A stretch of 64,000 nucleotides of DNA, from the IMG/VR virus record IMGVR_UViG_3300024265_000031. One strand, 5' to 3'. The notes below the pieces were generated by a model, which saw only the letters and a program-made list of their open reading frames with translations, had not been told where the DNA came from and made no database searches. The DNA comes from a virus. Positions 421-23,142 of the stretch are shown here, one piece after another (position 1 is the stretch's first letter; every line of letters starts with the position of its first letter). A program made the position numbers and the translations under genes.

Positions 421-451
421 TGTGCCTCCTTCAATGAAATGTACGTTTTAT

Positions 452-715
452 CTATCCCATAATGCTTTTAATATCATCAGGACTCAAGCCAGCCATTAAC
501 AATGTTGCCAAATTTTCATTACGCTCTCGTTCTTGATTGCCAGCCATTATTAGTAATCCCGCGACTACATCATCTTTTTTGGCATGGTTAGACTGTTTCA
601 TTTCCCTTGCCATAGCACCCATTAATATGACCATAGCATTAGGATTGTTTGGGTCATCCCACCTACATCCAGCTTCACGTTCTGCTCTTTCAATTAAATT
701 AGTTGCATTATTCAT
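452..715 (-). CDS. hypothetical phage protein
   Basis: 87-aa ORF with AAGGAG RBS. Confidence 0.7.
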   Translation of the reverse strand: MNNATNLIERAEREAGCRWDDPNNPNAMVILMGAMAREMKQSNHAKKDDVVAGLLIMAGNQERERNENLATLLMAGLSPDDIKSIMG

Positions 716-726
716 TGTATTTCTCC

Positions 727-927
727 TTATTCAATTGGATCTAAATCTCTTTGTACCATTTCCCATTGTGAATTAGCAACTAAAGCATTGGGTAGATCAA
801 GCTGGTGTTCAAATCCAGGCGTGCATTTAATCAACATCCATTCTCTATCTTCTTCGCTCATTTCGTTCCATTTCTTTTTGCTGATCTCAACTATTACTGT
901 TGCTTTTGCTAAAATAATTGTGTCCAT
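727..927 (-). CDS. hypothetical phage protein
   Basis: AAGGAG RBS, directly downstream of promoter 952-980. Confidence 0.7.
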   Translation of the reverse strand: MDTIILAKATVIVEISKKKWNEMSEEDREWMLIKCTPGFEHQLDLPNALVANSQWEMVQRDLDPIE

Positions 928-951
928 TGATTCTCCTTGTATCTTATTATA

Positions 952-980
952 AGTATATCAGATTACATATGTTATGTCAA
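952..980 (-). promoter_or_regulatory. sigma70/sigmaA-type early promoter
   Basis: TTGACA-17bp-TATACT. Confidence 0.8.
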
Positions 981-995
981 GATAAAATGACGATT

Positions 996-1259
996 TTATT
1001 GAATCTCATCAACCCTTTTTATTGTCTTGCAATTTTTTGCAATCATAAAACTTTTAATATAAACGCTGCCATTATCTGGTTGAGAAGAATTAGACCTAAG
1101 TGAATTGTTATCAATACCTAGAGGAATTGCATTGCCAGAATATATTGCATTTATACCATCTTGAAGATATTTTCCACTTATTGCTTCGCATTCACAATGT
1201 CTGGTTTTCATTCTTAGACCAAAAATATCTTTGCACCTTCTACAATATAATAATTTCAT
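996..1259 (-). CDS. hypothetical protein, Cys-rich (CxxC...CxC)
   Basis: 87-aa ORF MKLLYCRRCKD...HCEC, coupled to upstream ORF. Confidence 0.7.
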   Translation of the reverse strand: MKLLYCRRCKDIFGLRMKTRHCECEAISGKYLQDGINAIYSGNAIPLGIDNNSLRSNSSQPDNGSVYIKSFMIAKNCKTIKRVDEIQ

Positions 1260-1456
1260 TTTACAACTCTAATTCCCTTTGAGAGTGTTCTTATCATTTT
1301 TCCAAACCACCATAGTTGCATAAATCCCAATTTTCTGTTGAATGGCAATAAGAACAAATTTGTAATGCCACAAAAAATGTCAATTAAATTACCAATGGCT
1401 TGCATCCATTTTGGAACTTCATTCAATCTTGTTATTTTAAGAGGGTAGGGGATCAT
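1256..1456 (-). CDS. hypothetical protein
   Basis: start refined to MIPYP after a GGAG RBS. Confidence 0.55.
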   Translation of the reverse strand: MIPYPLKITRLNEVPKWMQAIGNLIDIFCGITNLFLLPFNRKLGFMQLWWFGKMIRTLSKGIRVVK

Positions 1457-1457
1457 A

Positions 1458-1805
1458 TTATTCTCCAAATAAAATAGTTGTTTTATCTGTGCCAATCAGA
1501 TCAGTTACACTTATTGTATCTGTTGGTATTTTGTTTTCAACATATTTCAGCATTTCTTCTGTTATTTCAAATTCCAACACTGGTACTTCATAAATTTCAA
1601 TTATACTACCAGGATATTGTTTATTTAATATCTTCAATACCATTCTGATATCTCGCACTGAACCTTTTCTTAAATGTTCTTTTGCTGTTGATGGTGTTAA
1701 AAACATATGGTGTTCAAAAATAAGCGGATTACTAAATCCTTCTAAGCCTTTACGTCTAATAATTGTTACTGTCCTAGTTGCATTATGTTTTTCTCTATAG
1801 TTCAT
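1458..1805 (-). CDS. hypothetical protein
   Basis: 115-aa ORF in the co-oriented cluster. Confidence 0.65.
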   Translation of the reverse strand: MNYREKHNATRTVTIIRRKGLEGFSNPLIFEHHMFLTPSTAKEHLRKGSVRDIRMVLKILNKQYPGSIIEIYEVPVLEFEITEEMLKYVENKIPTDTISVTDLIGTDKTTILFGE

Positions 1806-1863
1806 AGTATTATGTATATATTCTTATATACTTCTCCTTTACGTATATCGAAATATGGGAAAA

Positions 1864-2085: not shown

Positions 2086-2109
2086 ATTTCTCCTAGATAA
2101 AACAATTTT

Positions 2110-2301: not shown

Positions 2302-2331
2302 TTATATATCCTTCCAGATAAAATCAATCTT

Positions 2332-2517
2332 TTATTTAACATACATTAAATCTATAGCTACAGATAAATCAAAAGTTTCTTCAAACCAACGCCAAATATC
2401 TTCTCTGGGTGTTCCTGGCTCAAACTCCAAAACCCACTCTTCGATTTTTTCATCATCGTTAATTGGAATATCGCCCAATAATTGCCAAAGTTCTTTTGCT
2501 TCCTCTAATTTATTCAT
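2332..2517 (-). CDS. hypothetical phage protein
   Basis: AGGAG RBS; LW..LGDIP...F..GT.REDIW.WFEE.F pattern. Confidence 0.7.
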   Translation of the reverse strand: MNKLEEAKELWQLLGDIPINDDEKIEEWVLEFEPGTPREDIWRWFEETFDLSVAIDLMYVK

Positions 2518-2545
2518 GTTGTTCTCCTAAGATAAAATGGATCTT

Positions 2546-2800
2546 TTATTTGGGATACATTTCCATTGCGTGAATTTGAATACATGAAGTGCCTTTTTTT
2601 ACATGTTCCATAACACCATCAATTTGACCCCTTTCATACAAATATTCTTCTGCAACTGCATGATTAATTTGTTTGATTTGACATCCAGTTCTTGAACAAT
2701 CAATTATAAATACTGGCAAACCTTCTCCATGTTTTTTAATAAGGTGATTGACAACGCTTTTTAATTCACCTAAAGTCATTGTTATGTCTTCAACTTTCAT
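2546..2800 (-). CDS. hypothetical protein
   Basis: start refined to MKVED after AAGGAG. Confidence 0.65.
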   Translation of the reverse strand: MKVEDITMTLGELKSVVNHLIKKHGEGLPVFIIDCSRTGCQIKQINHAVAEEYLYERGQIDGVMEHVKKGTSCIQIHAMEMYPK

Positions 2801-2829
2801 GTTGTTCTCCTTCAAATGAAATAAACCTT

Positions 2830-3120
2830 TTATTCAGTATATCCAAAATCTTGAACATATCCAAAAAACATATCACGCGGATCTCCTGCTCGTTCAATTT
2901 TTGAAATAAGAAATCTTGCTGTTTTTCCACTTTCCATTTTTGCTCTTAACTCATCACCAATGCTAGGGATGGGTGTCATATGTCCTGTTATGCGTCTTGA
3001 GTTCCAATCAGAAAAATATATTGAGTTTCCCCAACCGCTATGGTTACTCATATTTATAATTGTTCCAGTTAGTGGTGGTCGTCTAACTTTCTTTTTGAAA
3101 ATTTTATTAAGTAATTTCAT
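2830..3120 (-). CDS. hypothetical protein
   Basis: start refined to MKLLNK after AAGGAG. Confidence 0.65.
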   Translation of the reverse strand: MKLLNKIFKKKVRRPPLTGTIINMSNHSGWGNSIYFSDWNSRRITGHMTPIPSIGDELRAKMESGKTARFLISKIERAGDPRDMFFGYVQDFGYTE

Positions 3121-3149
3121 TTTTATCTCCTTCAGATAAAATAGACCTT

Positions 3150-3299
3150 TTATTTCCAGCGATATTCTACTGACTGGCAACTAATCCATAGCGGAATAAT
3201 TCCCAATAGAAAATATCCGTGCCATTTGCGTTCTACAAAATTGCCAAACGACTTTATTTTTGTCTTTCTTTCTGTTATCCATATATTTTTTATAATCAT
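3150..3299 (-). CDS. small hypothetical protein (49 aa, below ORF-track cutoff)
   Basis: MIIKNIWITE...W.GYFLLGIIPLWI...; fills the gap between two junction palindromes. Confidence 0.55.
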   Translation of the reverse strand: MIIKNIWITERKTKIKSFGNFVERKWHGYFLLGIIPLWISCQSVEYRWK

Positions 3300-3330
3300 A
3301 GTATTTTTCTCAATAAAACAGACATTTCAT

Positions 3331-3549
3331 TTAAAAATTCTTTAAATTTTTATATGTTTCTTTTACATATCCATAACTACTCATAACATTTTCCATAGCC
3401 ACATAATGCAAAGTGCTTATGGGAATGTCTTGGTCAGTATCTAATGCTCCACAATATAAAAGTTTCTTAACTTCATTGGCAAATTTTTCTGTTATTTGTG
3501 CTAAAAATCTTTCCATGTGTATTGAGTCTAGGTATTCTTTTCTGTTCAT
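3331..3549 (-). CDS. hypothetical protein
   Basis: 72-aa ORF with AAGGA RBS. Confidence 0.65.
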   Translation of the reverse strand: MNRKEYLDSIHMERFLAQITEKFANEVKKLLYCGALDTDQDIPISTLHYVAMENVMSSYGYVKETYKNLKNF

Positions 3550-3573
3550 ATGTATTTTCCTTGTTTGATTTTA

Positions 3574-6531: not shown

Positions 6532-6561
6532 TGCATATTCCTTTCAGATAAAATTAGTCTT

Positions 6562-6879
6562 TTATTTGTCAAATTTATCATTTAATTTTTCCATTACCAT
6601 CTGCAAAATCTCTTCTTTTTTCAATACCATCCTAGTATTCATTCTTACATTTTGTCCTAAAATATGTCGAGCAGTACTAATAATGTCAGGTATTTTCTTT
6701 TTGTTCTCACATTCTTTTAGTTTCTGCAAGATTAAATATATGCCATCCATCAAATGTTCATGTCGTTCTACCATATTATTCTTTTTATGTTCAGAAATTA
6801 TTAGCTTACCTGTTGTTATTTTAAGTTTCTTTTTTAGCACTTCATTTTCTTTTTGTAGGGTTTTTGTTTTCAACCACAT
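6562..6879 (-). CDS. hypothetical protein
   Basis: 105-aa ORF with AAGGA RBS. Confidence 0.6.
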   Translation of the reverse strand: MWLKTKTLQKENEVLKKKLKITTGKLIISEHKKNNMVERHEHLMDGIYLILQKLKECENKKKIPDIISTARHILGQNVRMNTRMVLKKEEILQMVMEKLNDKFDK

Positions 6880-6915
6880 AATATTTTCCTTTCAAGATAA
6901 AATTGTCGTTTTATT

Positions 6916-7089
6916 TTAGTCTTTCGTTTGTGCTGGAATTTCTTCTGCCTTGATTACATGAAAATCTTGGCAGTCTTCCTTTCCATCTAGTTCTCCCGCT
7001 AAAACTTTATCAATTGCGCTAGATATATCAATTGCTTCAACTTCATAATAGAATTCCACCACTTGTTCTGCTATTATTTTGAATTTCAT
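6916..7089 (-). CDS. hypothetical protein
   Basis: start refined to MKFKI after AAGGAG. Confidence 0.65.
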   Translation of the reverse strand: MKFKIIAEQVVEFYYEVEAIDISSAIDKVLAGELDGKEDCQDFHVIKAEEIPAQTKD

Positions 7090-7118
7090 TTTATTCTCCT
7101 TGTATATTTTGTTATTCA

Positions 7119-7191
7119 AGCCCGTAGTAGGATTTGAACCTACATTCTCCTATTTCGAAGATAGTTGCTGATCCAGTTTAGCTATACGGGC
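7119..7191 (-). tRNA. tRNA-Arg(UCG), no encoded CCA
   Basis: GCCCGTA/TACGGGC acceptor stem, CT-TCG-AA anticodon loop, GTAGG-TTCAAAT-CCTAC T arm. Confidence 0.85.
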
Positions 7192-7193
7192 AA

Positions 7194-7268
7194 AGTCCGT
7201 GACAGGATTCGAACCTGCATAACTTTCTCCTTAGAAGGGAGATGTTCATCCTCTTGAACTACACGGAC
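7194..7268 (-). tRNA. tRNA-Arg(UCU), no encoded CCA
   Basis: GTCCGTG/CACGGAC acceptor stem, TCTCC-CT-TCT-AA-GGAGA anticodon arm, GGTTCGAATCC T arm. Confidence 0.9.
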
Positions 7269-7274
7269 GTTAGA

Positions 7275-7349
7275 TGCGCCTGGGAGGATTTGAACCTCGC
7301 GACTCTTGGCTTAAAAGGCCACTACTCTACCAGACTGAGTTACAGGCGC
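7275..7349 (-). tRNA. tRNA-Lys(UUU), no encoded CCA
   Basis: GCGCCTG/CAGGCGC acceptor stem, TGGC-CT-TTT-AA-GCCA anticodon arm, GGTTCAAATCC T arm. Confidence 0.9.
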
Positions 7350-7365
7350 AAATGAAATGGTCATT

Positions 7366-7629
7366 TTATTGGTAACATTCTCGTTTATCAAGACTTGTGC
7401 TTTCAAGAGAAATTCTTCTGGGATCTTCTTTGTTGATATCATCCCAAATTAAAAGCTGTAGTTCACCATCAAACACTTCAAGAGTGACAAGAATGTTTTG
7501 GTTTGTAAAAGTACCATACCCATCAGCAGAAATATCTATGCCGTCACCATTGCTTCCAATTACCATTTTTATTCTTACTTCTTTGGGTGTTATCTCATCT
7601 TTCAAAATTTCTTCAGTCCATTTTGCCAT
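7366..7629 (-). CDS. hypothetical protein
   Basis: 87-aa ORF with AGGAG RBS. Confidence 0.7.
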   Translation of the reverse strand: MAKWTEEILKDEITPKEVRIKMVIGSNGDGIDISADGYGTFTNQNILVTLEVFDGELQLLIWDDINKEDPRRISLESTSLDKRECYQ

Positions 7630-8129: not shown

Positions 8130-8153
8130 GTAAAAATGGTGTTGTGATAAAAT

Positions 8154-8390
8154 CTAGCTTTCATCTATGGATTTTGCATTTTGAAAATCTTGAAACATAC
8201 AGTGATTGAATTTTTGATTCAACATTTTTTCAATGTTCTCATCTGTTATGATTGTTTCAAGTTTATATAATACTAATCTTGTTTGAGGCAAACATTTTTT
8301 TATTTCTTTAAATGTTTGTTTTGCTTTATCTTCATCAAAATAATAATGTGTGTTTAGAGTTCCCGTTATCCAATATATTGTTTTTTTCAT
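8154..8390 (-). CDS. hypothetical protein
   Basis: 78-aa ORF, coupled to upstream ORF. Confidence 0.6.
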   Translation of the reverse strand: MKKTIYWITGTLNTHYYFDEDKAKQTFKEIKKCLPQTRLVLYKLETIITDENIEKMLNQKFNHCMFQDFQNAKSIDES

Positions 8391-8789: not shown

Positions 8790-9005
8790 TTATCCTCCAA
8801 ACCTAGTTGGGTGTGTCTGAATGGGTTTGCCCAATTTCCAATTGAGCAAATCAATTTGGTCACCATTAGAAATATATTCTTGTTCTACTCGTGTTAATGT
8901 ATCAAAAGGGTCTTCATCGTTTGTGCCACAAAATGAATCACCCATTATCTCTTCAATTTCTTGTTGTCTAGCCAAAAGTTGTTCAAGCTTTTCTTTATCT
9001 GACAT
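8790..9005 (-). CDS. hypothetical protein
   Basis: AAGGAG RBS lies inside a junction palindrome. Confidence 0.65.
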   Translation of the reverse strand: MSDKEKLEQLLARQQEIEEIMGDSFCGTNDEDPFDTLTRVEQEYISNGDQIDLLNWKLGKPIQTHPTRFGG

Positions 9006-9017
9006 AAAATGCTCCTT

Positions 9018-9203
9018 TTATCTGGAATATTGAGTATTGGAAGTTGCAACAACTAAATGAATATAGTCACACGTATCGCATGTTTGGTTTCCATTTGTTG
9101 GGTTGTAATTTTCCAATTGTAATTCTAAACATTTTGGACACGCCCACGCATATTCATCCTCGCCGTTATATTTTCCTACTTGAATTAATTCTGCTGTTTT
9201 CAT
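9018..9203 (-). CDS. small zinc-ribbon protein
   Basis: CPKC...CDTC; AGGAG RBS. Confidence 0.65.
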   Translation of the reverse strand: MKTAELIQVGKYNGEDEYAWACPKCLELQLENYNPTNGNQTCDTCDYIHLVVATSNTQYSR

Positions 9204-9226: not shown

Positions 9227-10606
9227 TTATAACACATCTGTTATGTACTTGTCAAGCCAAACTTGACCTTCTTCTAAATTATTGAACACACCATCTAACT
9301 GAGCCTCAAACGCATCTCTTAAAATATCTCCAAACTTTGGAGATGGATTCATTCCTCTTTCAATTAAATGCCTACCTAATAAAATCTCTTTTGGTGCTTG
9401 AGATTCTACTTGTAAATCTTTTGCTATTTCACGAATTTGAATTGCTTCTTTAGGCAATCCTCCCTTTAATGGTGGTCTTCCATCATGATCTGCTTCCATA
9501 ATCATAAGCAATTCTGTTATGGTACATGGGTGCAATCTTCTGGCTAATCTTCTAACTGCGCGCTTAGATGGATTCCTGTTATGTACATGTGCCATGTGTT
9601 CACGTACAAGAGGAATGATTCTCTCAATTAGATATGTTTCTTTCATACCAATTGAGTCAAGAAATTGGCGCGCTGGTTCTTCTCCCATTATATCATGCGC
9701 ATGGGAGATTATTTTGCCATCCTTCACCTCTGTTGTAGCTGGTTTCCCCACATCATGCAATAATGCAGCGTACAGAACATTTAATTTGTCTGTTATCACT
9801 CTGGCAGCATCTATTGTATGCAATGTATGATCCCATGCATTCCCTTCTGGATGATGTGCTGGTTCTTGTGGTGTGCTTCTGAGCGCATCCAAGACAGGAA
9901 ATTTAGATATCCAACCTGTTTGGACAAGAACATCAAGTCCAAGCGAAATATACTTTCCCTTCTGCAACATCTTATTAAATTCAATAAGAATTCTTTCTTT
10001 GGCCAACGAATCAAATTCTGTTATCATAAATTTACTAAGATTAATTGTCTCTGTAGCCACAACAAAACTAAATCTCGCGGCAAATTGCATTATACGCAAG
10101 ACCCTTAATGGATCCTCCATAAATGCTTTGCTTGTATGTCTTATTATCTTGTTATGTATGTCTTCAATTCCACCATAGAAGTCAATAACTTCTTGCAAGA
10201 ATGGATCATAAAACATGCTATTACAAGTGATATCGCGTCTAGACGCGGCTTCTTTCAGTGTTATTGTAGGATCAATTTCTACAATAAAACCTTTATGTCC
10301 TTGCCCTTCCTTATTCTCTGTTCTTGGAAGAGAGAAATCTAATTCATCTCCTCCCTCTTTTCTCATATCAACTTTAAATATTCCAAATGCCATACCTACT
10401 GCATCAACATTTGAGGTATGTTTGCGAAGAACAAACTCTAATTTCTTTGCTGTTATATTGAAACACTCAACGTCTACATCTTTAGAATTGATTCCCATTA
10501 TTAAATCCCTAACCCATCCTCCAATGATATAAGGTTTTCCGCCTGCTTTTTTTATGTCTTTAAGGATTGTAAGAGTTTTGGGATTAATTTTTGACGGTAT
10601 TCTCAT
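9227..10606 (-). CDS. cca: CCA tRNA nucleotidyltransferase with HD phosphohydrolase domain (class II)
   Basis: GGWVRD, DVDVE, RRDIT.N, EDPLRVLR, ERI..E and H..H...LLHDVGKP motifs; start refined to MRIPSK. Confidence 0.93.
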   Translation of the reverse strand: MRIPSKINPKTLTILKDIKKAGGKPYIIGGWVRDLIMGINSKDVDVECFNITAKKLEFVLRKHTSNVDAVGMAFGIFKVDMRKEGGDELDFSLPRTENKEGQGHKGFIVEIDPTITLKEAASRRDITCNSMFYDPFLQEVIDFYGGIEDIHNKIIRHTSKAFMEDPLRVLRIMQFAARFSFVVATETINLSKFMITEFDSLAKERILIEFNKMLQKGKYISLGLDVLVQTGWISKFPVLDALRSTPQEPAHHPEGNAWDHTLHTIDAARVITDKLNVLYAALLHDVGKPATTEVKDGKIISHAHDIMGEEPARQFLDSIGMKETYLIERIIPLVREHMAHVHNRNPSKRAVRRLARRLHPCTITELLMIMEADHDGRPPLKGGLPKEAIQIREIAKDLQVESQAPKEILLGRHLIERGMNPSPKFGDILRDAFEAQLDGVFNNLEEGQVWLDKYITDVL

Positions 10607-10612
10607 TGTGTA

Positions 10613-10641
10613 ATTATATCCTTTTTCAATGTGTTTGTCAA
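10613..10641 (-). promoter_or_regulatory. consensus promoter for cca, probably leaderless
   Basis: TTGACA-17bp-TATAAT, with the ATG 6 nt downstream. Confidence 0.85.
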
Positions 10642-10696
10642 GCTCCCATAAGCAGTAGCGAACTGCAATCATCCTCTGTTATGGGATTTAGGATTG

Positions 10697-10867: not shown

Positions 10868-10903
10868 TTTGTTCTCCTTTTATTCTTGGATGAAATTATG
10901 ATT

Positions 10904-11284
10904 TTATCTGGCAAAACCAGATTCAATTTCAACTTTATAGTATTCTTCTGCAGTATTCATGATTTCCTTGTAGCCTGGATCACTATCCCAATTTATACCA
11001 CAATATGGGCATATCAAATCTGTTTTTCCAACGTGTCCTTTTATTTTGTTTATCAGTCTTTCAAATAATTTTCCTGTTGGCACAAATTTTAGTTTTCCGT
11101 AACATAAAGGACAATTTTCACATCCCTCCATATCTAAGTCAATAATGAAATGACATTCTGGTGGATTGATTACATCTTGCACTAAACCACCTTTAACAAA
11201 AATGTATGTAGGTTCTTTTTCGTTATATGATGGTTCTTCATGGTTTAAAAGTTCGTCTTGAATTTTTTCTTCATGTTCGTTCAT
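10904..11284 (-). CDS. hypothetical zinc-ribbon protein
   Basis: CPLC...CPYC; AAGGAG RBS. Confidence 0.65.
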   Translation of the reverse strand: MNEHEEKIQDELLNHEEPSYNEKEPTYIFVKGGLVQDVINPPECHFIIDLDMEGCENCPLCYGKLKFVPTGKLFERLINKIKGHVGKTDLICPYCGINWDSDPGYKEIMNTAEEYYKVEIESGFAR

Positions 11285-11327
11285 GTTATTTCTCCTTTTT
11301 GTATCTAATGAAATATGCTTTTATCTG

Positions 11328-12124: not shown

Positions 12125-12149
12125 TTTGCTCCTAGATGAAATCACGATT

Positions 12150-12341
12150 TTATGTATGGTTAGTCATACGTATAGTCTTTTTTAGATATTTTGCATCATT
12201 TAGTGCATAGCTTCTATGAATGCGCGGAATATTTGTGGGTATATTATAAGATACTGTGTCTGTTATTCTAACATAGCCCATATAATGTTGTCCTAAGTCT
12301 ATTGTTGTTCTTTTTCTAGTATATGCTTTTATTTCTGACAT
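12150..12341 (-). CDS. hypothetical protein
   Basis: start refined to MSEIK after GAGGA. Confidence 0.55.
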   Translation of the reverse strand: MSEIKAYTRKRTTIDLGQHYMGYVRITDTVSYNIPTNIPRIHRSYALNDAKYLKKTIRMTNHT

Positions 12342-13708: not shown

Positions 13709-13740
13709 TGTGTTATCCTTAAATGAAATGTTCCTTTTAT

Positions 13741-14172
13741 CTAGCCCCAAATAGCCTTGTCATATTCTGGAAGGTCTTGTACAATCATTGTTGCAAGGTC
13801 ACCAGCATATTTATCTAATACCTGATATAGCATATCTTCTGGAACATTTCCTTCTGCGCATTGATAAAGCAAGCACTTTATTGACGACATTGCTTGAATT
13901 CTTTGTGGAGGAACAATGCTTGTATATTGATATTCTGATCCACCAGTAAATTCTTTAATTGTTTTCTGGTTATATCTGGCAATGATGGCTTTTTCATTCA
14001 TTTTTCTTATTGCATTGCCTAAATTTTTACATTCTTCTTTGGTTGAAACTAAAAGCATTGCATTATTATATTTGGGGTCTGGCATTTTGGATGTCCATCC
14101 CCTTTCAGTTGCATATTGAAGTGTTGATACAATTCTGTTGATTGTTATGTCGTCCACGATATAAGCACTCAT
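13741..14172 (-). CDS. conserved hypothetical phage protein
   Basis: MSAYIV...N..AI.ARY...CL.YQC.E pattern; AAGGAG RBS. Confidence 0.75.
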   Translation of the reverse strand: MSAYIVDDITINRIVSTLQYATERGWTSKMPDPKYNNAMLLVSTKEECKNLGNAIRKMNEKAIIARYNQKTIKEFTGGSEYQYTSIVPPQRIQAMSSIKCLLYQCAEGNVPEDMLYQVLDKYAGDLATMIVQDLPEYDKAIWG

Positions 14173-14215
14173 TTTTATCTCCTTGTATTTGTTATAGATG
14201 AAATATATCTTTTAT

Positions 14216-14452
14216 CTACAGATTCTTAGTGACATAGCCAAGATGATAAATACTCTTACCATCTTTATAATCATTGTAGCTTACAATATCTTTATCATTC
14301 AATATCGCAACTAATATTTTTTGGTTTGGATCTTTCCTATCAAATTGGAATCTTTCTGTTTCATATGCACCAGTTTTCTTGTTAATGGTTTTCACTGCTA
14401 CATATGCCACATTACTTTGATGATCTGCTTCAACTTCAATTATGACTGACAT
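14216..14452 (-). CDS. hypothetical protein
   Basis: start refined to MSVII after AAGGAG. Confidence 0.6.
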   Translation of the reverse strand: MSVIIEVEADHQSNVAYVAVKTINKKTGAYETERFQFDRKDPNQKILVAILNDKDIVSYNDYKDGKSIYHLGYVTKNL

Positions 14453-14453
14453 G

Positions 14454-14669
14454 TTAACTCCTTGCACCACTTAAAAAATTAATGATCTTGCCAGTAGTTT
14501 TTTCAACTATAGCAAAGTCATTTAAATTAACGGGCTTTAAATCATACCTGTTATGGAATGATTCTGCCCCGCGTTTACCAATTGATTGCATGTGTTCTGT
14601 TCCATGCTTTTTATATGTGGCTAAATCTCCCATTTTGCCACATTCAACTTTTGTAAGTTTTTGTTTCAT
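14454..14669 (-). CDS. KGG-like (general stress protein-like) small protein
   Basis: ECGKMG..T.KKHG.EHMQSIGKRG resembles the KGG repeat. Confidence 0.5.
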   Translation of the reverse strand: MKQKLTKVECGKMGDLATYKKHGTEHMQSIGKRGAESFHNRYDLKPVNLNDFAIVEKTTGKIINFLSGARS

Positions 14670-14953: not shown

Positions 14954-14980
14954 TCTATTATCCTAGTATTTTGTTATCAA

Positions 14981-15051
14981 AGATGATGGTGGGAATTGAA
15001 CCCACATAAACTGTTTTGCAGACAGTTACCTTACCAATTGGATACACCATC
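14981..15051 (-). tRNA. tRNA-Cys(GCA), no encoded CCA
   Basis: GATGGTG/CATCATC acceptor stem, ACTGT-CT-GCA-AA-ACAGT anticodon arm, GTGGG-TTCAATT-CCCAC T arm. Confidence 0.88.
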
Positions 15052-15063
15052 TAATGTACCTTA

Positions 15064-15347: not shown

Positions 15348-15381
15348 TTTTTCTCCTGTTATATGATTATAGATGAAACAC

Positions 15382-15675
15382 TCATTTTATCTGTGGAACT
15401 GGATTTAAGCATTTGCCAGACAACCATACAACAGATTCATCATGTAAAATAACTTCATAAACGCAACCCATATCATCATTCCAATAAGAAAAATCACCAG
15501 TTAGTCTGCATTCAGTTCTTACATATTCTGCGCTTGTATCGCCTTCAAAATATGCTTGTGTTGTTATTATTGCCTTCGTCCATGCCATTGTATGACTAAA
15601 TTCAATTGCGTTTTTAGATGGGCATACCTTATTCATTGTCATAATAAAACTCCTTAAATGAAATCTGTCTTTCAT
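15382..15675 (-). CDS. hypothetical protein
   Basis: ORF between two junction palindromes; true start probably MTMNK after AAGGAG. Confidence 0.55.
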   Translation of the reverse strand: MKDRFHLRSFIMTMNKVCPSKNAIEFSHTMAWTKAIITTQAYFEGDTSAEYVRTECRLTGDFSYWNDDMGCVYEVILHDESVVWLSGKCLNPVPQIK

Positions 15676-15987
15676 CTATCTTGATAATCCCATACATCCT
15701 ATTGGATTACCATTATCATCGCGCACTAATTCACCTGGAGCATATAAATCAGGTCTGCTACAAGCATTTAATACTAATCGCGACACAATAAAAATCGTAC
15801 CTTCTTCTGGTTCTGGAAGATTTTCCAATTCGCCAAAAGTTGTAGTTACTACAGGAATACCAAATATATCAGGCAATTCTGTTTTTGTTGTTGCTACACG
15901 TGCAATCTGTTTACAATGTGGTACAATTGCCAATATTCCTTTTTTGTCCATGATTGTTATATCGTGAGGGGTTAAATTTTTGATCAT
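15676..15987 (-). CDS. conserved phage protein (NLTPH family), function unknown
   Basis: NLTPH.I...RV...LPEP..GT..IVS..V...R.DL..PG..VRD..G..IGC pattern. Confidence 0.75.
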   Translation of the reverse strand: MIKNLTPHDITIMDKKGILAIVPHCKQIARVATTKTELPDIFGIPVVTTTFGELENLPEPEEGTIFIVSRLVLNACSRPDLYAPGELVRDDNGNPIGCMGLSR

Positions 15988-16247
15988 TATTTTTCTCCTT
16001 GTGTTATATCGAATCCTACTGATTTTCCAAAGTTAATTATCTTTTCAGATAAATGACCAACAACTTCAAATTGTCCTAGCTGACATTCATCAAACATAGC
16101 CCAATTTTCTGACATAAATGTGTTAAAGTCTTTGTACGTATCAGAGTCAATTATTACAGTCTTTCTTGTTGAGTCCCATCTTGCCCATGCTCTGTTATCC
16201 CAAATACCCCACCAAATATCTGTTTGTTCTCTCATTTCAATCTCCAA
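15987..16247 (-). CDS. hypothetical protein
   Basis: 86-aa ORF, coupled to downstream ORF. Confidence 0.55.
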   Translation of the reverse strand: MEIEMREQTDIWWGIWDNRAWARWDSTRKTVIIDSDTYKDFNTFMSENWAMFDECQLGQFEVVGHLSEKIINFGKSVGFDITQGEK

Positions 16248-16264
16248 TAAAATATGTGTTTTAT

Positions 16265-16576
16265 TTATACTAAATCTGTAATTTGTTCTCTGAATGCAGA
16301 CAACAAATCGTTAAAACTTGAATTATCACTGTAATCTATCATTACAGTGTTTTCCAATCGTTCTACTAAAATTGATTTTTGTTCTTTAGTCATTGCCCTG
16401 ATTCGAAAATCCATAGCACATCCAGACAATCGATTCTGTTCAATCAGTTCTTGTAATCTGTTATCTGCAAGAAATTCTTCATGATCTGCTTTAATAATAT
16501 CGTATTTATCTATCAGATTACCATCAATCAGTTTTTTCTGTTCTTGTGTAGGTACTCTCATACTATCTTGTATCAT
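16265..16576 (-). CDS. hypothetical protein
   Basis: GAGGA RBS. Confidence 0.6.
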   Translation of the reverse strand: MIQDSMRVPTQEQKKLIDGNLIDKYDIIKADHEEFLADNRLQELIEQNRLSGCAMDFRIRAMTKEQKSILVERLENTVMIDYSDNSSFNDLLSAFREQITDLV

Positions 16577-16784: not shown

Positions 16785-16973
16785 TGAATTGTGGGTTTTA
16801 TGTGTACATTGTCAATTCTGCGCGCAATGTTATAGCTGCATTTTTGGCTCTCATACATTCAGATTCTTTTCGCTGATTCTTTTGTGCCATTCGCATTAAT
16901 TGCTTGCGTCTTTTTTGTTGTAGTTTATGAAATTCTCTTTTATGATTTTTTCTCATTGTTATGATCCTTCCAC

Positions 16974-17423: not shown

Positions 17424-17675
17424 TTTAGACTCCTTGTATGTAATAAAAGATTGCTTTATTTCTTGTTGGATCCAAATATGCGCTGCCATACACACATATT
17501 TTTATATTCTAATCTATACCATCTAACAGATGGTAGTATTTTGAAGGTAAATTTTCCTAGGCGATATAGAGTAATTTCTTTGCCTGCTTCGTCTGGTTGT
17601 TTCGTTTTAATTATTTTACGTTTCAACATAATTTGCTCCTCGTTTTGAGATAAAATATTGGTTTTATTGTGGATC

Positions 17676-18995
17676 TTAGGATATTTTCATGGCATTCATG
17701 ATTATTGCTGCGCTTACATCAGTACATGCCTTAACGTGTTGGTTTGTTAAATCTTCTGTGTCATGTTCTGCATGTGCTAATTCATGTAGAAATGTACTGA
17801 TTGCGTCTTGTTTGTGATTGAGTCTTCTTACATTAATTCTGATTTTCTTTGTTATCCTGTCACAATCACCATTAGCAGATGGTAGTCGCGCAATAGAAAT
17901 TTTATTAGTATCAAAACCAAACTTTCTCGCGACTCTTCTTACTGCCTTAACTGATTCTTTCTGATATGGTTCAAGTGAATTATAACTTACATTGAAAGCC
18001 TTTTCCCCCATTTTTTCTTCAACGTATGATTCATCTGTTCCCACAATTTGTTCTAAAATCTGGCAAACATATGTGCCAAATTTTGATCTTTCTATTGGTT
18101 TGGCCTTTCTATGTTTTGCTTCGCGAGTGGCATTTTCTGTTGTTGATATTACAGCGTTTTTACCATAGACTGTTTCAAATGCTTCTTTAATTACATTATC
18201 AGTATCTTGAGGAATTCTAGGAATATATAAATCTTTTTCCTTGCATCCAGATGCTACCGCTTCAAAGAAGAGAGTCCAAGCACTTTCACCATCAATATTT
18301 TGCCAAATATTACCTATACATTCCAGCATTTCCCAAATTGAAATAATGTCGCGGTCTCTGTTAATTTTGTTGGTGAAAATGTTATAACCATATTTAAAAT
18401 CTTTTAAATCTTGTACATAAATTCCATTAACGTACAGTTTAGGTTTAATTGGTTGTGGAGGATCATCATCTGTTACATCATAAATAATCCAGCCATTGCG
18501 AGTTTTACATGCAATGTCAGATGATTCAGGATCAATTAGTTTATCCTGAAATGTTTCATATTCCCAATTATGAATTATAATTTTTGTTCCAACAAAAGGA
18601 TCATCATTTTCTGAATAGTATAACACAAAAGTTTCTGTGTCTGCAATTATCTCTATACCATTGGTAATATAGAGTCCATTAGTGAAAATTTCTGCTTCGA
18701 GTCCCATCCTAGTTATAACAAGCATTGCCAATTTTAAACCTTCTCCAAATTGGCCAATGGGGTTGTCTGTGGTTTTTTCAGAAATTCCTAATAACAATTG
18801 TTTAACTGTCAAACCACTTCCAGAGTCTTCAATCACTAAATTATCTCCCTTCATTTTTACTGAATATTCAAATCCAGTATCAATAGCATTGGAAGTTAAT
18901 TCCCTTACAATTTCCCATGCTCCCCATGTAGGAACATAATCAAGACTCATTCCATATGAAACTTTTTCTGCTGGTTTTTCTAGTGTATTTTCCAT
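17676..18995 (-). CDS. GHKL (HATPase_c-like) ATPase fused to a C-terminal HEXXH zincin-like domain
   Basis: RELTSNAID, EDSGSG and IGQFGEGLK GHKL boxes; FLHELAH near the C-terminus. Confidence 0.8.
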   Translation of the reverse strand: MENTLEKPAEKVSYGMSLDYVPTWGAWEIVRELTSNAIDTGFEYSVKMKGDNLVIEDSGSGLTVKQLLLGISEKTTDNPIGQFGEGLKLAMLVITRMGLEAEIFTNGLYITNGIEIIADTETFVLYYSENDDPFVGTKIIIHNWEYETFQDKLIDPESSDIACKTRNGWIIYDVTDDDPPQPIKPKLYVNGIYVQDLKDFKYGYNIFTNKINRDRDIISIWEMLECIGNIWQNIDGESAWTLFFEAVASGCKEKDLYIPRIPQDTDNVIKEAFETVYGKNAVISTTENATREAKHRKAKPIERSKFGTYVCQILEQIVGTDESYVEEKMGEKAFNVSYNSLEPYQKESVKAVRRVARKFGFDTNKISIARLPSANGDCDRITKKIRINVRRLNHKQDAISTFLHELAHAEHDTEDLTNQHVKACTDVSAAIIMNAMKIS

Positions 18996-19065
18996 TTTAC
19001 TCTCCTTTTTTCTAGTATAAAAAACTCAATGAAATTACTATTTTATTGTATAGTTCTGTTATATA

Positions 19066-19094
19066 ATTATACCATATTTAATGGTTGTTGTCTA
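19066..19094 (-). promoter_or_regulatory. early promoter for the GHKL gene
   Basis: TAGACA-17bp-TATAAT with TG. Confidence 0.7.
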
Positions 19095-20795
19095 ATGTAA
19101 ACCATTATCTTTATTTACCCAAAACATATTATCTTTGCTGCGCGTCATTGCCACATAGATAATATTTTGTTCTTGCTGTATATCTTCTTTGCTTATAGCT
19201 TTTGTTGATGGCATTAATTCTGGACGCAAGATAAAGATATTTTCTGCTTCTTTACCTTTTGCTTTATGAATAGATGAAAATCGTATGCCATAACTATCAT
19301 CTGAAAACATCTCATCTATTTGAGATATTAATTCATTTACTGTTTCAACTTCTTCTGCTATTGCAGAAATTGCCAATATATTGTCTTCTAGATTCTCTAA
19401 TTTTCTGTCAGTATCATTGTCATTTTTTGCAATGATAATATCTCTTCTTTTCATATGATGGTCATCTAGCACTTGCCAAAACTTTTTAATTTCCTGGATA
19501 CTAGTATTTCCTATAGCCTGTTGAATTGTATTGATTAAACCTACTCCAATTTGTTTTCCCAAAACATAAGCTTTGATTCCCTTCTTTAATAATGAGAAAC
19601 AAGGTTTCATTAATGGAGCATTCATTCTACAAATTGCTAAATCACCATCTTTAATGTGGGATAGCAGATTCGTTTCATTTATATATCGTTCTGATCCTTC
19701 TTTTGCTCCTGAAAAAGTTTGAAATTTTATGTGGTTAAATTCCCTGTTTACTGCCGCGACTACTGCCTTACTACATCTAAAACATACAGTTAATGGCATA
19801 ATATCTGCCTGAAGTTTTTCAATCAACAATGGTATCGCGTTAGTATCTGCACCGCGAAAACCATATATACTTTGATATTCATCTCCTACCGCGATAATTC
19901 TACCATTTTCTGTTAGACTATTCATTGCAAAATGAATTTGTGCTAGAGTAAAATCTTGTACTTCGTCTAGCATAAGTACATCAAATTTTCTGCATGATAC
20001 CCCATGCATTCCTGTTGCACAGAATAGGATAACATCTGAAAAATCTACATCTCTTTGAATTAGATTCCCATCTTTATCTAACATTTCAATTGATGTGTAG
20101 AAAATCTCATTGATTCCCCCATAAATCGTTTCTAAATACGGACTGTCAAAATCCACATTGTATTTAGAGCATACCATGTCAATGTTTTCTTCTGTTGGAT
20201 ATAGAAGTTTTCCCTTCAATAAATTTATGACATGCTTCATTTTAAATATGTTCTTTTTTACTTCTTTTGCTTTTCCCTTATCATCAAAATCTTTTATTCT
20301 TTCCCTAATAAGATTTTGTATCTTGTATTTTTGAATTTGAATTTCCTTGCCTAGTGTTGCTCTTACATTTTTTAATGCTAGAGAATGAGTAGTGGAATTA
20401 TAAACCCATGCAGGAGTAATTTCTGCATTATCTTCTGCATTTTGAGTGTTGAAAACAATTAATCCTGCTTGAATATCTGTAGGCAAAAAATCAATTACTC
20501 CCATTAATGTTGTTGTTTTCCCAGTTCCAGCGCGTGCCTTTACCACTAGATGATTATTAGTGGTTTGGATTCTGGTATAGATATTTGTTTGTTCAATTGT
20601 TGGAGGGAATTTTTTTCTTTCCACCTTAATTGTTGATTTTACTGTTTTCTTTTTTGAATAATAACTTACAGTACTACCAGAACATTTAGTTTTTGATTTA
20701 ATATGATGCCAATTAGAACATGCCCAAAACTTTCCCCCATTTTTTGATTTTAAAATCATTGGAGCATTGCATTTTTTGCAATTGGGTATTGTCAT
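19092..20795 (-). CDS. SF1 UvrD/Rep-like helicase with N-terminal topoisomerase-type zinc ribbon
   Basis: CKKC...FWACSN; ARAGTGKTT, DEVQD, VGDEYQSIYGFRGA, SIHKAKGKE, YVAMTRSK; start refined to MTIPN. Confidence 0.9.
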   Translation of the reverse strand: MTIPNCKKCNAPMILKSKNGGKFWACSNWHHIKSKTKCSGSTVSYYSKKKTVKSTIKVERKKFPPTIEQTNIYTRIQTTNNHLVVKARAGTGKTTTLMGVIDFLPTDIQAGLIVFNTQNAEDNAEITPAWVYNSTTHSLALKNVRATLGKEIQIQKYKIQNLIRERIKDFDDKGKAKEVKKNIFKMKHVINLLKGKLLYPTEENIDMVCSKYNVDFDSPYLETIYGGINEIFYTSIEMLDKDGNLIQRDVDFSDVILFCATGMHGVSCRKFDVLMLDEVQDFTLAQIHFAMNSLTENGRIIAVGDEYQSIYGFRGADTNAIPLLIEKLQADIMPLTVCFRCSKAVVAAVNREFNHIKFQTFSGAKEGSERYINETNLLSHIKDGDLAICRMNAPLMKPCFSLLKKGIKAYVLGKQIGVGLINTIQQAIGNTSIQEIKKFWQVLDDHHMKRRDIIIAKNDNDTDRKLENLEDNILAISAIAEEVETVNELISQIDEMFSDDSYGIRFSSIHKAKGKEAENIFILRPELMPSTKAISKEDIQQEQNIIYVAMTRSKDNMFWVNKDNGLH

Positions 20796-20970
20796 TTTTT
20801 TAACCTCATTTTTTTGTATAATTTGTCGATTCTGGTATTTTTGCCTGTTATTGGCGGCTACAGGAAAATTTTCTGTTATAGTGGAAAAACAGTTTTCTTG
20901 GGGAAAATGCAATCCCAAAATTTTCCTGTGGTCGCGCGGTAATAACGCGACAAACTTTAAATATACTTTA

Positions 20971-20999
20971 AGTATAGCATTAATAGTGGTAATTGTCAA
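20971..20999 (-). promoter_or_regulatory. promoter for the helicase, long structured leader
   Basis: TTGACA-17bp-TATACT with TG. Confidence 0.8.
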
Positions 21000-21064
21000 G
21001 TAATAATGATTATTATGAATTAAATATTAAATATTAAGATCTGTAATTTTTGTCCAGTTTAAAA

Positions 21065-21196
21065 CAGCTCTCACACCTGGCAGAGCTGTAAGCCAGGTCG
21101 CAGCTCTCACACCTGGCAGAGCTGTAAGCCAGGTCGCAGCTCTCACACCTGGCAGAGCTGTAAGCCAGGTCGCAGCTCTCACACCTGGCAGAGCTG
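21065..21196. repeat. GC-rich perfect tandem repeat, 36-bp unit x3.67
   Basis: CAGCTCTCACACCTGGCAGAGCTGTAAGCCAGGTCG at 21065, 21101, 21137 and a partial copy at 21173. Confidence 0.95.
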
Positions 21197-21298
21197 ATTA
21201 ACCCATCGGATTAAAACGTCTTTAAACCCCATTTTAAGCGATTCTAAGGAGTATTATTGTCAATAACTGGAAACATATACCAGCACAGTCTTAAACGC

Positions 21299-21328
21299 AA
21301 AAATCGCCAATTTTGCAATTGGCGATTC
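21299..21328 (-). terminator. intrinsic terminator of the DUF262 gene
   Basis: AATCGCCAATT-loop-AATTGGCGATT running into a T-tract on the minus strand. Confidence 0.75.
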
Positions 21329-21361
21329 TTGTCTATGGATTCAGATAAAATCTGAATTTTA

Positions 21362-22591
21362 TCAGTCTAATTCATTGGTCTTAATCATGCCGGTAACATT
21401 GCCGCGCGGAGTAAAATCATTTACGGATTCTTCTTTGGCGGATTCTACTTTTGCCATTTTTTCTGTCATGGTATCCGCGTCAATAATTTCAGGTTCGCCA
21501 TTGCGCGATTTATTGGTTTGTTTCTTTGGTTTGGTTTTTTCTACAATGGGCTTGGGTTTGTCACCATTGCCTGATAGAATCTTGCCAATTATTTCATGAC
21601 GCTTGACAATTTGACCGTTTGACGCTGTAGCAGAAGAACAAGAATCGCCGTAGAAAATGCGCATATCGGACCGCGCATTGCGCAATTGCCCAAAAAATTC
21701 AATGAGATAAAGAGTCATATTCTCACATGATTCTTTTTTCTCATTGCCTACCAGATTCGCAAGGATTGCTTCTACATGAGTCTTTTTTGAGAAACGCTTT
21801 ACACTTGCGATATCACTTTTTTCAGTGAATTCTACTGATACAATCCAGTACAATCTATCCAGTTTTTTCTTCAAATTGGCGATATCTTGCTTCGTCAATG
21901 TATGCGCAATAAACCAGTCTATTGCCTTGCGCGAGGTATAGTCAAGGTTTGCGGATTCTTCGTTCATTGACATAATAGATTGTATAACAATTGACTCAAC
22001 AACCAAAGATTTAAACGGGTTGTTTTTCAAGTTTGCTTTGTCGTTCATAAAATCCCAAACCTTATGATTCACGCAAGAATCAAGGTCTAATAATTTGTCA
22101 ACTATTTCACCGCGTTTCGCTTCTAACAGAGTCAATGGAATTCCACCGCGGTTTATATCGATGAAATATTCTACTACTTCGCTATCATCGAGAGACAATA
22201 CAACCATCATGATAACAGTGTTTAAAAATTGTTCGCGTTCGCGTTCTTGCCAATCCATAACACCATTTCCATTAACATTGTCGTCATAGTCTGTAGGGGT
22301 AAGCAACCCATCATACAAGCTTGACAACGTGCGCGTCCGTTGCTTCCCATCTACCATATTATACATGCCATTATCACGTGTGGCCAAAAATAAACCAATT
22401 GGTCTACCAGTCAAAATTGAACGAACAAAATTATCAACTATGTTTGGTTTATTCCAGTGATTTTTATCAGTTCGCTGATACGCCATAGCGGTATTAATCC
22501 TTCCCTTATTGCGTAGGGCTAGATATTCCCTGACAGTTAATTCTACCATTTCATAATTTTTAACCATTGCGTTTTTTTGTGTTTCAGTCAT
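21362..22591 (-). CDS. DUF262 (ParB/Srx-like, GmrS-type) domain protein
   Basis: YQR...W...SIL.G.PIG, VDGKQRT.TL and F.DINRGG.PLT motifs; no HNH/DUF1524 C-terminus seen. Confidence 0.8.
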   Translation of the reverse strand: MTETQKNAMVKNYEMVELTVREYLALRNKGRINTAMAYQRTDKNHWNKPNIVDNFVRSILTGRPIGLFLATRDNGMYNMVDGKQRTRTLSSLYDGLLTPTDYDDNVNGNGVMDWQEREREQFLNTVIMMVVLSLDDSEVVEYFIDINRGGIPLTLLEAKRGEIVDKLLDLDSCVNHKVWDFMNDKANLKNNPFKSLVVESIVIQSIMSMNEESANLDYTSRKAIDWFIAHTLTKQDIANLKKKLDRLYWIVSVEFTEKSDIASVKRFSKKTHVEAILANLVGNEKKESCENMTLYLIEFFGQLRNARSDMRIFYGDSCSSATASNGQIVKRHEIIGKILSGNGDKPKPIVEKTKPKKQTNKSRNGEPEIIDADTMTEKMAKVESAKEESVNDFTPRGNVTGMIKTNELD

Positions 22592-22941
22592 TTTACCTAT
22601 TCCTTATATGAATTGAATTATTGAATAAATTATGTACATCATTGTACAAATTGCGATTATTTCAGTATTATATTTTTTCATGTATTTTTTCCTTTTTTTG
22701 TAAAGTACTTTGAATAAAAATTAGTGATTAATTTCACTTTGATAATTTGCTATTCATACCTCTATAGAATAGCAAATTACGCAAGTAAAATCAAGGAATA
22801 ATTTGATTTTTAATTTTGAGAAGTTTATACCTCAAAAACAATACTTGCCACAAAAACCAATTTAAAAAACCTGTAAAGATATCCCTTTTGTTTTTGCAAA
22901 AATCAAGTAAGCTTACAATTGTTTTCATTATGATAAAATCC

Positions 22942-23142
22942 TTATTTTATTGGTGACAAATTAGAGTAATATCTATCAACACAAAATAGACAAAATGCTA
23001 TAGCTTTTGTCAATGTGGGATATTTATTTACTACTTCTCTGTCATTGTATGTTAGGTGTATACCCCACTTTTCAACAGGGTTATATTCAAGATGAAATTT
23101 TACCCCATCGATATAAATTATTCTATCATGTATTGCGTACAT
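22942..23142 (-). CDS. hypothetical protein
   Basis: GAGG RBS. Confidence 0.55.
   Translation of the reverse strand: MYAIHDRIIYIDGVKFHLEYNPVEKWGIHLTYNDREVVNKYPTLTKAIAFCLFCVDRYYSNLSPIK

Follow-up and report, generated by a model that had tools for sequence, protein, structure and literature searches.

What is the short palindrome that separates many of the small genes of the virus recorded as IMGVR_UViG_3300024265_000031, and which protein reads it? The element was studied in 64,000 nucleotides of this virus, a large SPbeta-like phage (the window, i.e., the whole stretch analysed), which belong to a source contig of ~150 kb, and in which a first-pass annotation had described an array of copies of RATRAAA-N6-TTTYATY at gene junctions. 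Here we report that the array looks, from sequence comparisons, like an undescribed site-specific gene-exchange system, with a YomM-family tyrosine recombinase encoded in the same window as its candidate enzyme.

The array is real. The window contains 28 strict 20-mers (RATRAAA-N6-TTTYATY), compared with 0.11 expected from dinucleotide-preserving shuffles of the window (largest shuffle, 2); 22 of them lie in the early arm (433-22951), whose genes are on the minus strand as judged by GC skew, open reading frames (ORFs) and tRNAs, and the other six in the late arm (plus strand). Conservation covers an 18-mer, ATRAAA-N6-TTTYAT, which is present in 30 copies against 0.27 in shuffles and raises the early-arm total to 24, including two copies that are 18-mers only; the numbers first given for the two arms (23 and 4) were thus slightly too low, the late arm holding six. 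The spacer is 6 bp long in 30 of the 33 copies of these arms (N5, two copies; N7, none; N8, one), and other spacers occur at background level for ATRAAA/TTTYAT arms. Copies with one mismatch in an arm are not in excess (6 vs. 5.5 expected). ATAAAA with a spacer of 6 is the commonest perfect palindrome of the window (17 copies, compared with four for the runner-up). The early arm was lengthened by 11.3 kb past the start of the window via an identical Logan contig; the array continues in this extension, giving 40 sites per 38 kb of early arm and 46 sites together with the late arm.

Conservation ends after 6-8 arm bases, and the flanks are not conserved beyond +/-1 base. A and G are tolerated at the same two positions of each arm, independently between the arms; on the mRNA strand, an A-C mismatch in mid-stem is found in 11 of 40 sites, compared with 10.8 under independence, and the 20-nt RNA of a site has a mean folding energy of -1.25 kcal/mol. 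Because the arms do not covary and the RNA fold is weak, the palindrome, judged by its pattern of variation, acts as double-stranded DNA that symmetrically paired protein subunits recognize, and not as an RNA hairpin, which speaks against the RNA-processing role that had been offered as an alternative. The site has the layout of a tyrosine-recombinase core site (inverted arms around an overlap region of 6-8 bp), here with the arms ATRAAA and TTTYAT and a strict 6-bp centre, in agreement with the geometry that the first-pass annotation had recognized. Its statement that all cores differ extends to each of the 46 readable sites. The cores are also oriented, as had been claimed: no core begins with A or ends with T, which is a symmetric rule, and 20 of the 22 strict left-arm cores end with A when read on the coding strand (none begins with A), which is asymmetric.

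The placement of the sites between early genes is equally regular. Read along the coding strand, a junction with a site consists of stop codon, site, Shine-Dalgarno sequence (SD) and ATG, the arrangement originally noticed, and 37 of the 87 early junctions are occupied. The stop codon is a TRA within the left arm at 17 of the 40 sites of the extended arm and ends right before the 18-mer at a further 11; most of the start codons that follow are 11-16 nt past the site. Two copies singled out earlier are as described: the one reported at 9003 (the 18-mer 9004-9021) holds stop codon, SD and ATG together, and the copy at 7351 adjoins the tRNA-Lys gene (7273-7350). Sites also occur within genes, in divergent promoter regions and beside the tRNA gene. 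Strong minus-strand sigmaA-like promoters, which are separate from the palindromes, drive the early arm; sites 981, 8146, 19028 and 22932 are adjacent to or overlap such promoters, most sites are not at promoters, and the motif itself contains no sigma-70-type hexamers. Paralogues or duplications bounded by sites were not found in the 38-kb early arm.

A single YomM-family gene was found in the window (56758-57741). Its product matches PF02899 (29.3 bits; cut-off 22.3) and PF00589 (29.8 bits; cut-off 27.1) and is 25% identical to SPbeta YomM over the full length (E 7e-16); in both phages, the gene belongs to the tail module and stands immediately ahead of the one for the tape-measure protein. 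Residues R168, K194/K197, H263, R266, H300 and Y309 show no variation among 30 homologues with 47-72% identity. The structural model (pLDDT 85) matched the folds of XerA, Cre, Tn1549 Int and XerH best, and also those of IntI (a mid-rank match) and lambda Int, all with a probability of 1.00. With a SAM-like core-binding domain, a catalytic domain and the catalytic hexad, the protein has the features of a tyrosine recombinase, and residues and predicted fold indicate that it is apparently active. The order of the genes for the RuvC-like resolvase (Table 1), the recombinase and the tape-measure protein is kept in two metagenomic relatives (L032 and L033).

The suggestion that this recombinase is the partner of the sites agrees with their co-occurrence across phages. 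With the backwards 18-mer as control, the 18-mer was enriched in each of the 11 phages tested that carry a YomM-like gene (3-38 copies vs. 0-2 in the control), a count whose independence is limited by the fact that several of the site-positive phages belong to one genus, and in none of seven AT-rich phages without such a gene (0-2 vs. 0-2). The positive phages are SPbeta (14 copies; control, 1), BUCT082 (15), GR1 (10), Staphylococcus PG-2021_4 (6), Enterococcus 9183 (6), VPE25 (4), Lenus (3), SA-C12 (3), Leuconostoc phiLM33_01 (27), c-st (14) and Perkons (38); the negative ones are PMBT24, BCP78, K, A511, phiEF24C, Twort and LP65, five of which are Herelleviridae (30-37% G+C, 130-150 kb). PMBT24 possesses YonO and a YorL-type polymerase and lacks both YomM and the sites, whereas c-st has the sites and a YomM-like gene and lacks YorL. 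Since these two phages dissociate them, the site is linked neither to the YorL-type replicase nor to YonO, and in gene content it tracks the recombinase rather than the polymerase modules. The cultured phages Perkons and phiLM33_01 also have amplified arrays with stop codons inside the left arm; the palindromes are not mentioned in the Perkons paper, and a literature search on yomM gave no relevant result.

Lytic siphoviruses with a YomM-like gene have few palindromes, one of them intragenic, which are evenly spaced at ~10-15 kb (e.g., Enterococcus 9183, MT939241.1: 7964, 19799, 30314, 40755 and 50652). The coefficient of variation (CV) of the gaps is 0.26-0.37, compared with ~0.8-0.9 for random positions (P = 0.001-0.02); the individual values are P = 0.001 for GR1 (OK896991.1; CV 0.33), 0.004 for Staphylococcus PG-2021_4 (MZ417338.1) and 0.02 for Enterococcus 9183. 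Even spacing was not seen in SPbeta or c-st.

A nucleotide match to the window is absent from INPHARED, and scans of IMG/VR and genomes yielded no close relatives of the early arm, only distant YonO loci. Because the window phage lacks a close relative, the breakpoint comparison proposed in the first-pass annotation was made in the SPbeta group, where its outcome was positive. Between SPbeta and BUCT082, six of the 14 SPbeta sites lie <=12 bp from the end of a blastn block, compared with 0.64 expected for random intergenic positions (none of 5000 trials reached 6). In the alignments, identity starts or stops at the edge of the palindrome and extends through it; the two phages share its core, and beyond the palindrome their DNA is unrelated. 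Same-core sites are collinear among SPbeta, BUCT082 and phi3T, and some form islands with both 80-nt flanks unrelated (e.g., SPbeta 99497, 113663, 116414 and 132746 vs. BUCT082). The SPbeta sites at 113663-113710 and 132746-132790 (NC_001884.1) share ~25 nt more downstream, before the next SD (TTAGARTAAAAATAAAAT); some sites may therefore have spread along with flanking sequence.

In laboratory hybrids of SPbeta and phi3Ts, all but one of the 16 junctions fell in homologous DNA, and the single non-homologous exception (N1) joined the region after yosA to phi3Ts position 107382 (10.1101/2020.05.06.055103). Both phages carry a palindrome with the core TATTCC in this neighbourhood, between unrelated flanks (SPbeta 116414-116431, between yorZ and yosA; phi3Ts 107396-107413). 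As support for exchange at the sites, this junction is suggestive only, because its SPbeta coordinate is not placed exactly.

Gene turnover is complete in a metagenomic relative of the window phage (58% identity in YonO, 62% in the recombinase). Its early arm has 25 sites per 20 kb (control, 0) in the same stop-site-SD-ATG layout, and its 44 early proteins have no match at E 1e-3 among the 93 proteins called on the 38-kb early arm of the window phage. The early arm of a relative contains two complete palindromes with different cores, only 3 bp apart (L037:542-580), which look like an empty slot.

The geometry of the site, its link to an apparently active recombinase, the sharp joints that keep the site, and the complete gene turnover at conserved junctions lead us to favour, tentatively and as something a little short of probable, the explanation that the YomM-family recombinase uses the palindromes as crossover sites, whose unique cores limit exchange to the same site of another genome. 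The restriction to the same address is proposed because the centres all differ within a genome and orthologous sites keep their centre. Each ATRAAA arm would be bound by one recombinase subunit, and strands would be exchanged across the 6-bp centre. Tyrosine recombinases generally require matching centres for a completed exchange. A productive partner would be the same-numbered site in another copy of the genome, in a co-infecting relative or in a resident prophage; unique centres would spare a genome with dozens of sites the internal deletions between them, and the DNA between two sites could be swapped among relatives. The RuvC-like resolvase, whose gene overlaps that of the recombinase, may resolve junctions that result from incomplete exchange. 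Sites would have multiplied in the lineage until about four in ten early-gene junctions were occupied, and the early arm would be a row of exchangeable slots because its sites are packed between stop codon and ribosome-binding site. Binding, catalysis at the site, and the roles of the core and of the RuvC-like protein are what we infer from these comparisons.

The first-pass annotation had pictured cassettes that are added, lost or shuffled at these sites. Shuffling within one genome finds no support; since the cores are distinct and site-bounded paralogues or duplications are absent, exchange between genomes at the same site fits better. The more general idea of exchangeable units at recombinase sites has comparative evidence in the SPbeta group, but no event was seen in the window phage.

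Several points weigh against this explanation. No exchange event is visible in the window phage, which has neither close relatives nor site-bounded paralogues, and 46 distinct cores are also the outcome expected by chance. With just 6-8 bp, the conserved arms are short for a simple site of the Xer/Cre type, and the tight fit to stop codon and SD, together with the coding-strand A at the last core base, could mean a role in expression. The recombinase matches of c-st and Perkons are weak (E ~1e-10 to 1e-9). In SPbeta YomM, a lysine apparently replaces the second catalytic arginine (pairwise alignment only). The comparison of SPbeta with phi3T is weaker than that with BUCT082 (two of 14 sites <=12 bp from a block end, two more <=20 bp; P = 0.13), and the three genomes are not independent. 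Finally, the SPbeta side of the laboratory junction N1 (chromosome position 2170033) cannot be mapped exactly to phage coordinates.

The main rival explanation, in itself unlikely, keeps the link between enzyme and site but has the recombinase use the sites for a late physical task on DNA (resolution of concatemers or terminal redundancy, cyclisation, or relief of torsion), with gene exchange as a by-product. The position of the gene in a late operon beside the RuvC-like resolvase and the tape-measure gene would suit such a task, as would the invariant catalytic residues and the even ~10-kb spacing in the three lytic siphoviruses, where one site is intragenic. A physical task leaves unexplained, however, why sites multiplied to 25-40 per 20-40 kb only at the early junctions of some lineages and why same-core islands stand amid unrelated DNA, and the uneven spacing in SPbeta and c-st does not fit it. 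Rather more doubtful is a role of the palindromes as operators of a symmetric regulator (an MrpR-like recombinase-fold protein or another dimer) that silences or times early genes, comparable to the stoperators of mycobacteriophages. Nearly all sites are indeed intergenic and directly 5' of a ribosome-binding site, the four sites named above abut or overlap sigmaA-like promoters, and SPbeta provides the precedent of a recombinase-fold repressor acting on a repeated element (PMC10516654). Yet most sites are away from promoters, the palindrome differs from that element (SPBRE), and the window protein does not resemble YopR/MrpR; invariance of all six catalytic residues is not what a protein that does nothing but bind DNA would show (MrpR has lost them; PMC10516654), and neither the intragenic, evenly spaced sites of lytic phages nor the precise coincidence with mosaic boundaries would be expected of operators.

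It is improbable that the motif is simply a patch of microhomology, kept for another reason, at which general or phage homologous recombination joins unrelated DNA without a site-specific enzyme. Such patches have a precedent in the PeSL elements of T4-type phages (PMC2839356, PMC4122927), SPbeta-like phages have annealing proteins of their own (the annotation of yorG is Sak4-like), and the joints are at the edge of the motif and sometimes within an arm (SPbeta 95562 and 128076 vs. BUCT082); different sites share only 12 bases, however, which is very short for homologous exchange, and microhomology would explain neither the strict 6-bp spacing and the missing excess of degenerate copies nor the association with the recombinase. 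An intercistronic hairpin that acts in mRNA processing, stability or translation is very improbable: a constant place after a stop codon and before an SD would agree with it, as would the preference for one base at the end of the core on the coding strand, but the fold is weak, mid-stem mismatches are as frequent as independence predicts, and sites also occur within genes, in divergent promoter regions and beside a tRNA gene. These points make the operator, microhomology and RNA roles less likely than a physical task.

How phage genomes come to be mosaics whose sharp joints coincide with gene boundaries has long been debated, and the answers proposed invoke either illegitimate events, which are rare, or homology in short linkers. 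The present comparison connects one particular enzyme family with one particular 18-bp site in at least five groups of phages. If crossover at the palindromes is correct, it would explain the function of the puzzling late-module 'integrase' of many strictly lytic Firmicute phages, give a rule that predicts the gene-exchange points of YomM-bearing phages, and provide a natural toolbox of orthogonal recombination sites. The SPbeta/phi3T pair in Bacillus subtilis is genetically tractable, so that the idea is directly testable.

Table 1. Palindromic sites and putative recombination genes of the window (window coordinates; the strand of the sites is given as '.').
Feature	Position	Strand	Remarks
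YomM-family tyrosine recombinase, candidate cognate enzyme	56758..57741	+	327 aa
RuvC-like resolvase, conserved partner	56304..56777	+	PF02075, E 2.9e-11; overlaps recombinase start
Junction palindrome	433..452	.	Stop of ORF 452-715 ends on base 1; next ATG 12 nt away
Junction palindrome	981..1000	.	TAA of ORF 996-1259 in left arm; abuts -35 of sigmaA-like promoter 980-952
Junction palindrome	1468..1487	.	Within last codons of ORF 1458-1805; next ATG 11 nt on
Junction palindrome	2317..2336	.	Arm holds stop of ORF 2332-2517; ATG at 15 nt
Junction palindrome	2531..2550	.	Arm holds stop of ORF 2546-2815; ATG at 13 nt
Junction palindrome	2815..2834	.	Arm holds stop of ORF 2830-3180; ATG at 14 nt
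Junction palindrome	3135..3154	.	TAA in arm; ATG at 14 nt
Junction palindrome	3312..3331	.	Stop of ORF 3331-3549 ends on base 1; ATG at 12 nt
Junction palindrome	6547..6566	.	Arm holds stop of ORF 6562-6879; ATG at 15 nt
Junction palindrome	6896..6915	.	Stop of ORF 6916-7119 abuts; ATG at 16 nt
Junction palindrome	7351..7370	.	Arm holds stop of ORF 7366-7629; abuts tRNA-Lys 7273-7350
Junction palindrome	8146..8165	.	Core holds stop of ORF 8154-8390; 17 nt upstream of promoter-like 8129-8101
Junction palindrome (18-mer, outer bases off-pattern)	9004..9021	.	Stop of ORF 9018-9203, core GGAG, ATG of ORF 8790-9005
Junction palindrome	10889..10908	.	Arm holds stop of ORF 10904-11284; an ATG at 21 nt
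Junction palindrome (18-mer, outer bases off-pattern)	12136..12153	.	An ATG at 11 nt
Junction palindrome	13722..13741	.	Stop of ORF 13741-14172 ends on base 1; ATG at 13 nt
Junction palindrome	14197..14216	.	Stop of ORF 14216-14470 ends on base 1; ATG at 24 nt
Junction palindrome	15372..15391	.	Core holds stop of ORF 15382-15675; ATG at 24 nt
Junction palindrome	15657..15676	.	Stop of ORF 15676-15987 ends on base 1; ATG at 14 nt
Junction palindrome	16246..16265	.	Stop of ORF 16265-16576 ends on base 1; ATG at 10 nt
Junction palindrome	17649..17668	.	8 nt past stop of ORF 17676-18995; ATG at 19 nt
5'-leader palindrome	19028..19047	.	Downstream of promoter-like 19094-19066; 32 nt to ATG of ORF 17676-18995
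Junction palindrome	21344..21363	.	Bases 1-2 overlap stop of ORF 21362-22591; then hairpin 21302-21327
Palindrome nearest divergent region	22932..22951	.	First of early arm in transcription order; core holds stop of ORF 22942-23142
Late-arm palindrome	31797..31816	.	Intergenic; ATG of ORF 31851-33263 34 nt on
Late-arm palindrome	33274..33293	.	11 nt past stop of ORF 31851-33263; ATG at 33327 33 nt on
Late-arm palindrome	43105..43124	.	8 nt past stop of ORF 41499-43097; ATG at 43149 24 nt on
Late-arm intragenic palindrome	44780..44799	.	Within ORF 44033-45637
Palindrome just upstream of RuvC-recombinase pair	56270..56289	.	TTG start 56304 14 nt on; same relative place in relative L032
Late-arm palindrome past tape-measure gene	62026..62045	.	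5 nt past stop at 62021; overlaps G+C-rich hairpin
5-bp-spacer variant	11308..11324	.	
5-bp-spacer variant	16927..16943	.	

The late arm opens with a gene for a YonO-type single-subunit RNA polymerase (26760-29369, plus strand; Pfam RdRP, E 2e-18), whose product is 25% identical to SPbeta YonO and 38% identical to the BUCT082 counterpart and has hundreds of metagenomic homologues with 48-65% identity. The tape-measure protein of the window resembles YomI, and YonV-, YonG-, YonF- and YomD-like genes are common to the window and SPbeta. The YonF-like large terminase is encoded in two ORFs (38546-39799 and 40910-41470), which together match contiguous parts of SPbeta YonF; ORF 39969-40832 is located between the two halves, so that an insertion by an intron, an intein or a homing endonuclease is possible.

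The early arm contains four tRNA genes on the minus strand (Arg-TCG, Arg-TCT, Lys-TTT and Cys-GCA; 7119-7350 and 14980-15052) and a gene for a CCA-adding enzyme (9227-10672). Two genes are located at its promoter-proximal end, one (21362-22591, minus strand) for a protein with a GmrSD-N-like nuclease domain (PF03235, E 1e-9), the other (19092-20999) for a Zn-ribbon helicase of the UvrD type; helicase homologues were traced to unrelated contigs with 45% G+C and without sites. An exact 60-nt tandem repeat, G+C-rich for this genome and with copies 72 nt apart (21065-21196), is located between site 21344 and the helicase ORF.

Among known systems with similar features is SPBRE, a repeated SPbeta element bound by the recombinase-fold repressor MrpR/YopR (PMC10516654). 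Phage group, repeated intergenic element and tyrosine-recombinase-fold protein are common to both, but SPBRE, as derived from the SPbeta promoters named in that study (PMC10516654), is an asymmetric element of ~15-22 bp at ~ten promoters (CAAATACAAAAAATATGTATAT) and unrelated in sequence; the window recombinase is not YopR- or YopP-like (YopR BLASTP, E = 2.9) and keeps the catalytic residues, whereas MrpR is without them (PMC10516654). The palindromes are also not promoters of YonO, because that polymerase starts at one promoter, upstream of yonK (PMC5467207), and SPbeta has 14 sites over its early and late regions. PeSL elements are likewise repeated where small early genes of hyperplastic regions meet, and insertions, deletions and replacements that distinguish relatives map to them (PMC2839356, PMC4122927). 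They consist, however, of a promoter and a stem-loop of ~50 bp together, with homologous recombination as the presumed mechanism (PMC2839356, PMC4122927), whereas the window motif is an exact, promoterless 18-bp palindrome linked to a dedicated tyrosine recombinase. It does not combine an early promoter and a stem-loop terminator in one repeat, since the promoters of the early arm are separate and its own hairpin is weak.

The amplified REP elements resemble the sites in being short intergenic palindromes, often past stop codons, that are tied to a single-copy enzyme gene (RAYT). In contrast, RAYTs are HUH enzymes, and REPs are G+C-rich imperfect hairpins of bacterial chromosomes whose copies share the whole sequence, whereas the window sites have individual centres.

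Integrons and pdif modules, to which the first-pass annotation had likened the array, are not matched in their defining parts. Integron attC sites are imperfect palindromes of 57-141 bp with R''/L'' and L'/R' boxes and a GTTRRRY core, which are recombined as a folded single strand. The likeness lies in units of one to few genes that are split by recombination-type sites often overlapping the preceding stop, and in full gene turnover among relatives while the junction element stays. Here, however, the sites are simple palindromes of 18-20 bp and not of the folded attC type; there is no intI-attI-Pc head, the recombinase being encoded ~34 kb from the array on the other strand, and the units have their own SDs and several internal sigmaA-like promoters. 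The dif/pdif site is 28 bp long, with two 11-bp arms bound by host XerC and XerD, and pdif modules are Xer sites bounding gene modules on Acinetobacter plasmids. Inverted arms, a 6-bp centre and many sites that bound gene modules in one replicon are common to these sites, to XerH/difH and XerA/dif, and to the window; a palindromic site suits a single recombinase, and XerA and XerH rank high among the structural matches. The array nevertheless falls outside the XerCD type: it has 6-8 conserved arm bases instead of 11, a phage-encoded late-operon recombinase instead of host XerCD, and dozens to >100 sites, every one with a different centre, packed between stop codon and SD.

Cre and heterospecific lox sites work in the way suggested above for the distinct centres: one recombinase acts on inverted arms, and spacer identity sets the choice of partner. 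Phage P1, in contrast, carries just one loxP, whose arms are 13 bp and whose spacer is 8 bp long. Mutually incompatible spacer sets are a laboratory device, and we know of no natural genome-wide set. It is conceivable, if more doubtful than crossover at the palindromes as such, that SPbeta-like and related Firmicute phages possess one, i.e., dozens to >100 lox-like sites with private 6-bp centres that permit slot-by-slot, position-preserving swaps of accessory genes, with evenly spaced points in the lytic members. With it, cassette systems would be of three kinds: integrons, pdif modules and this set.

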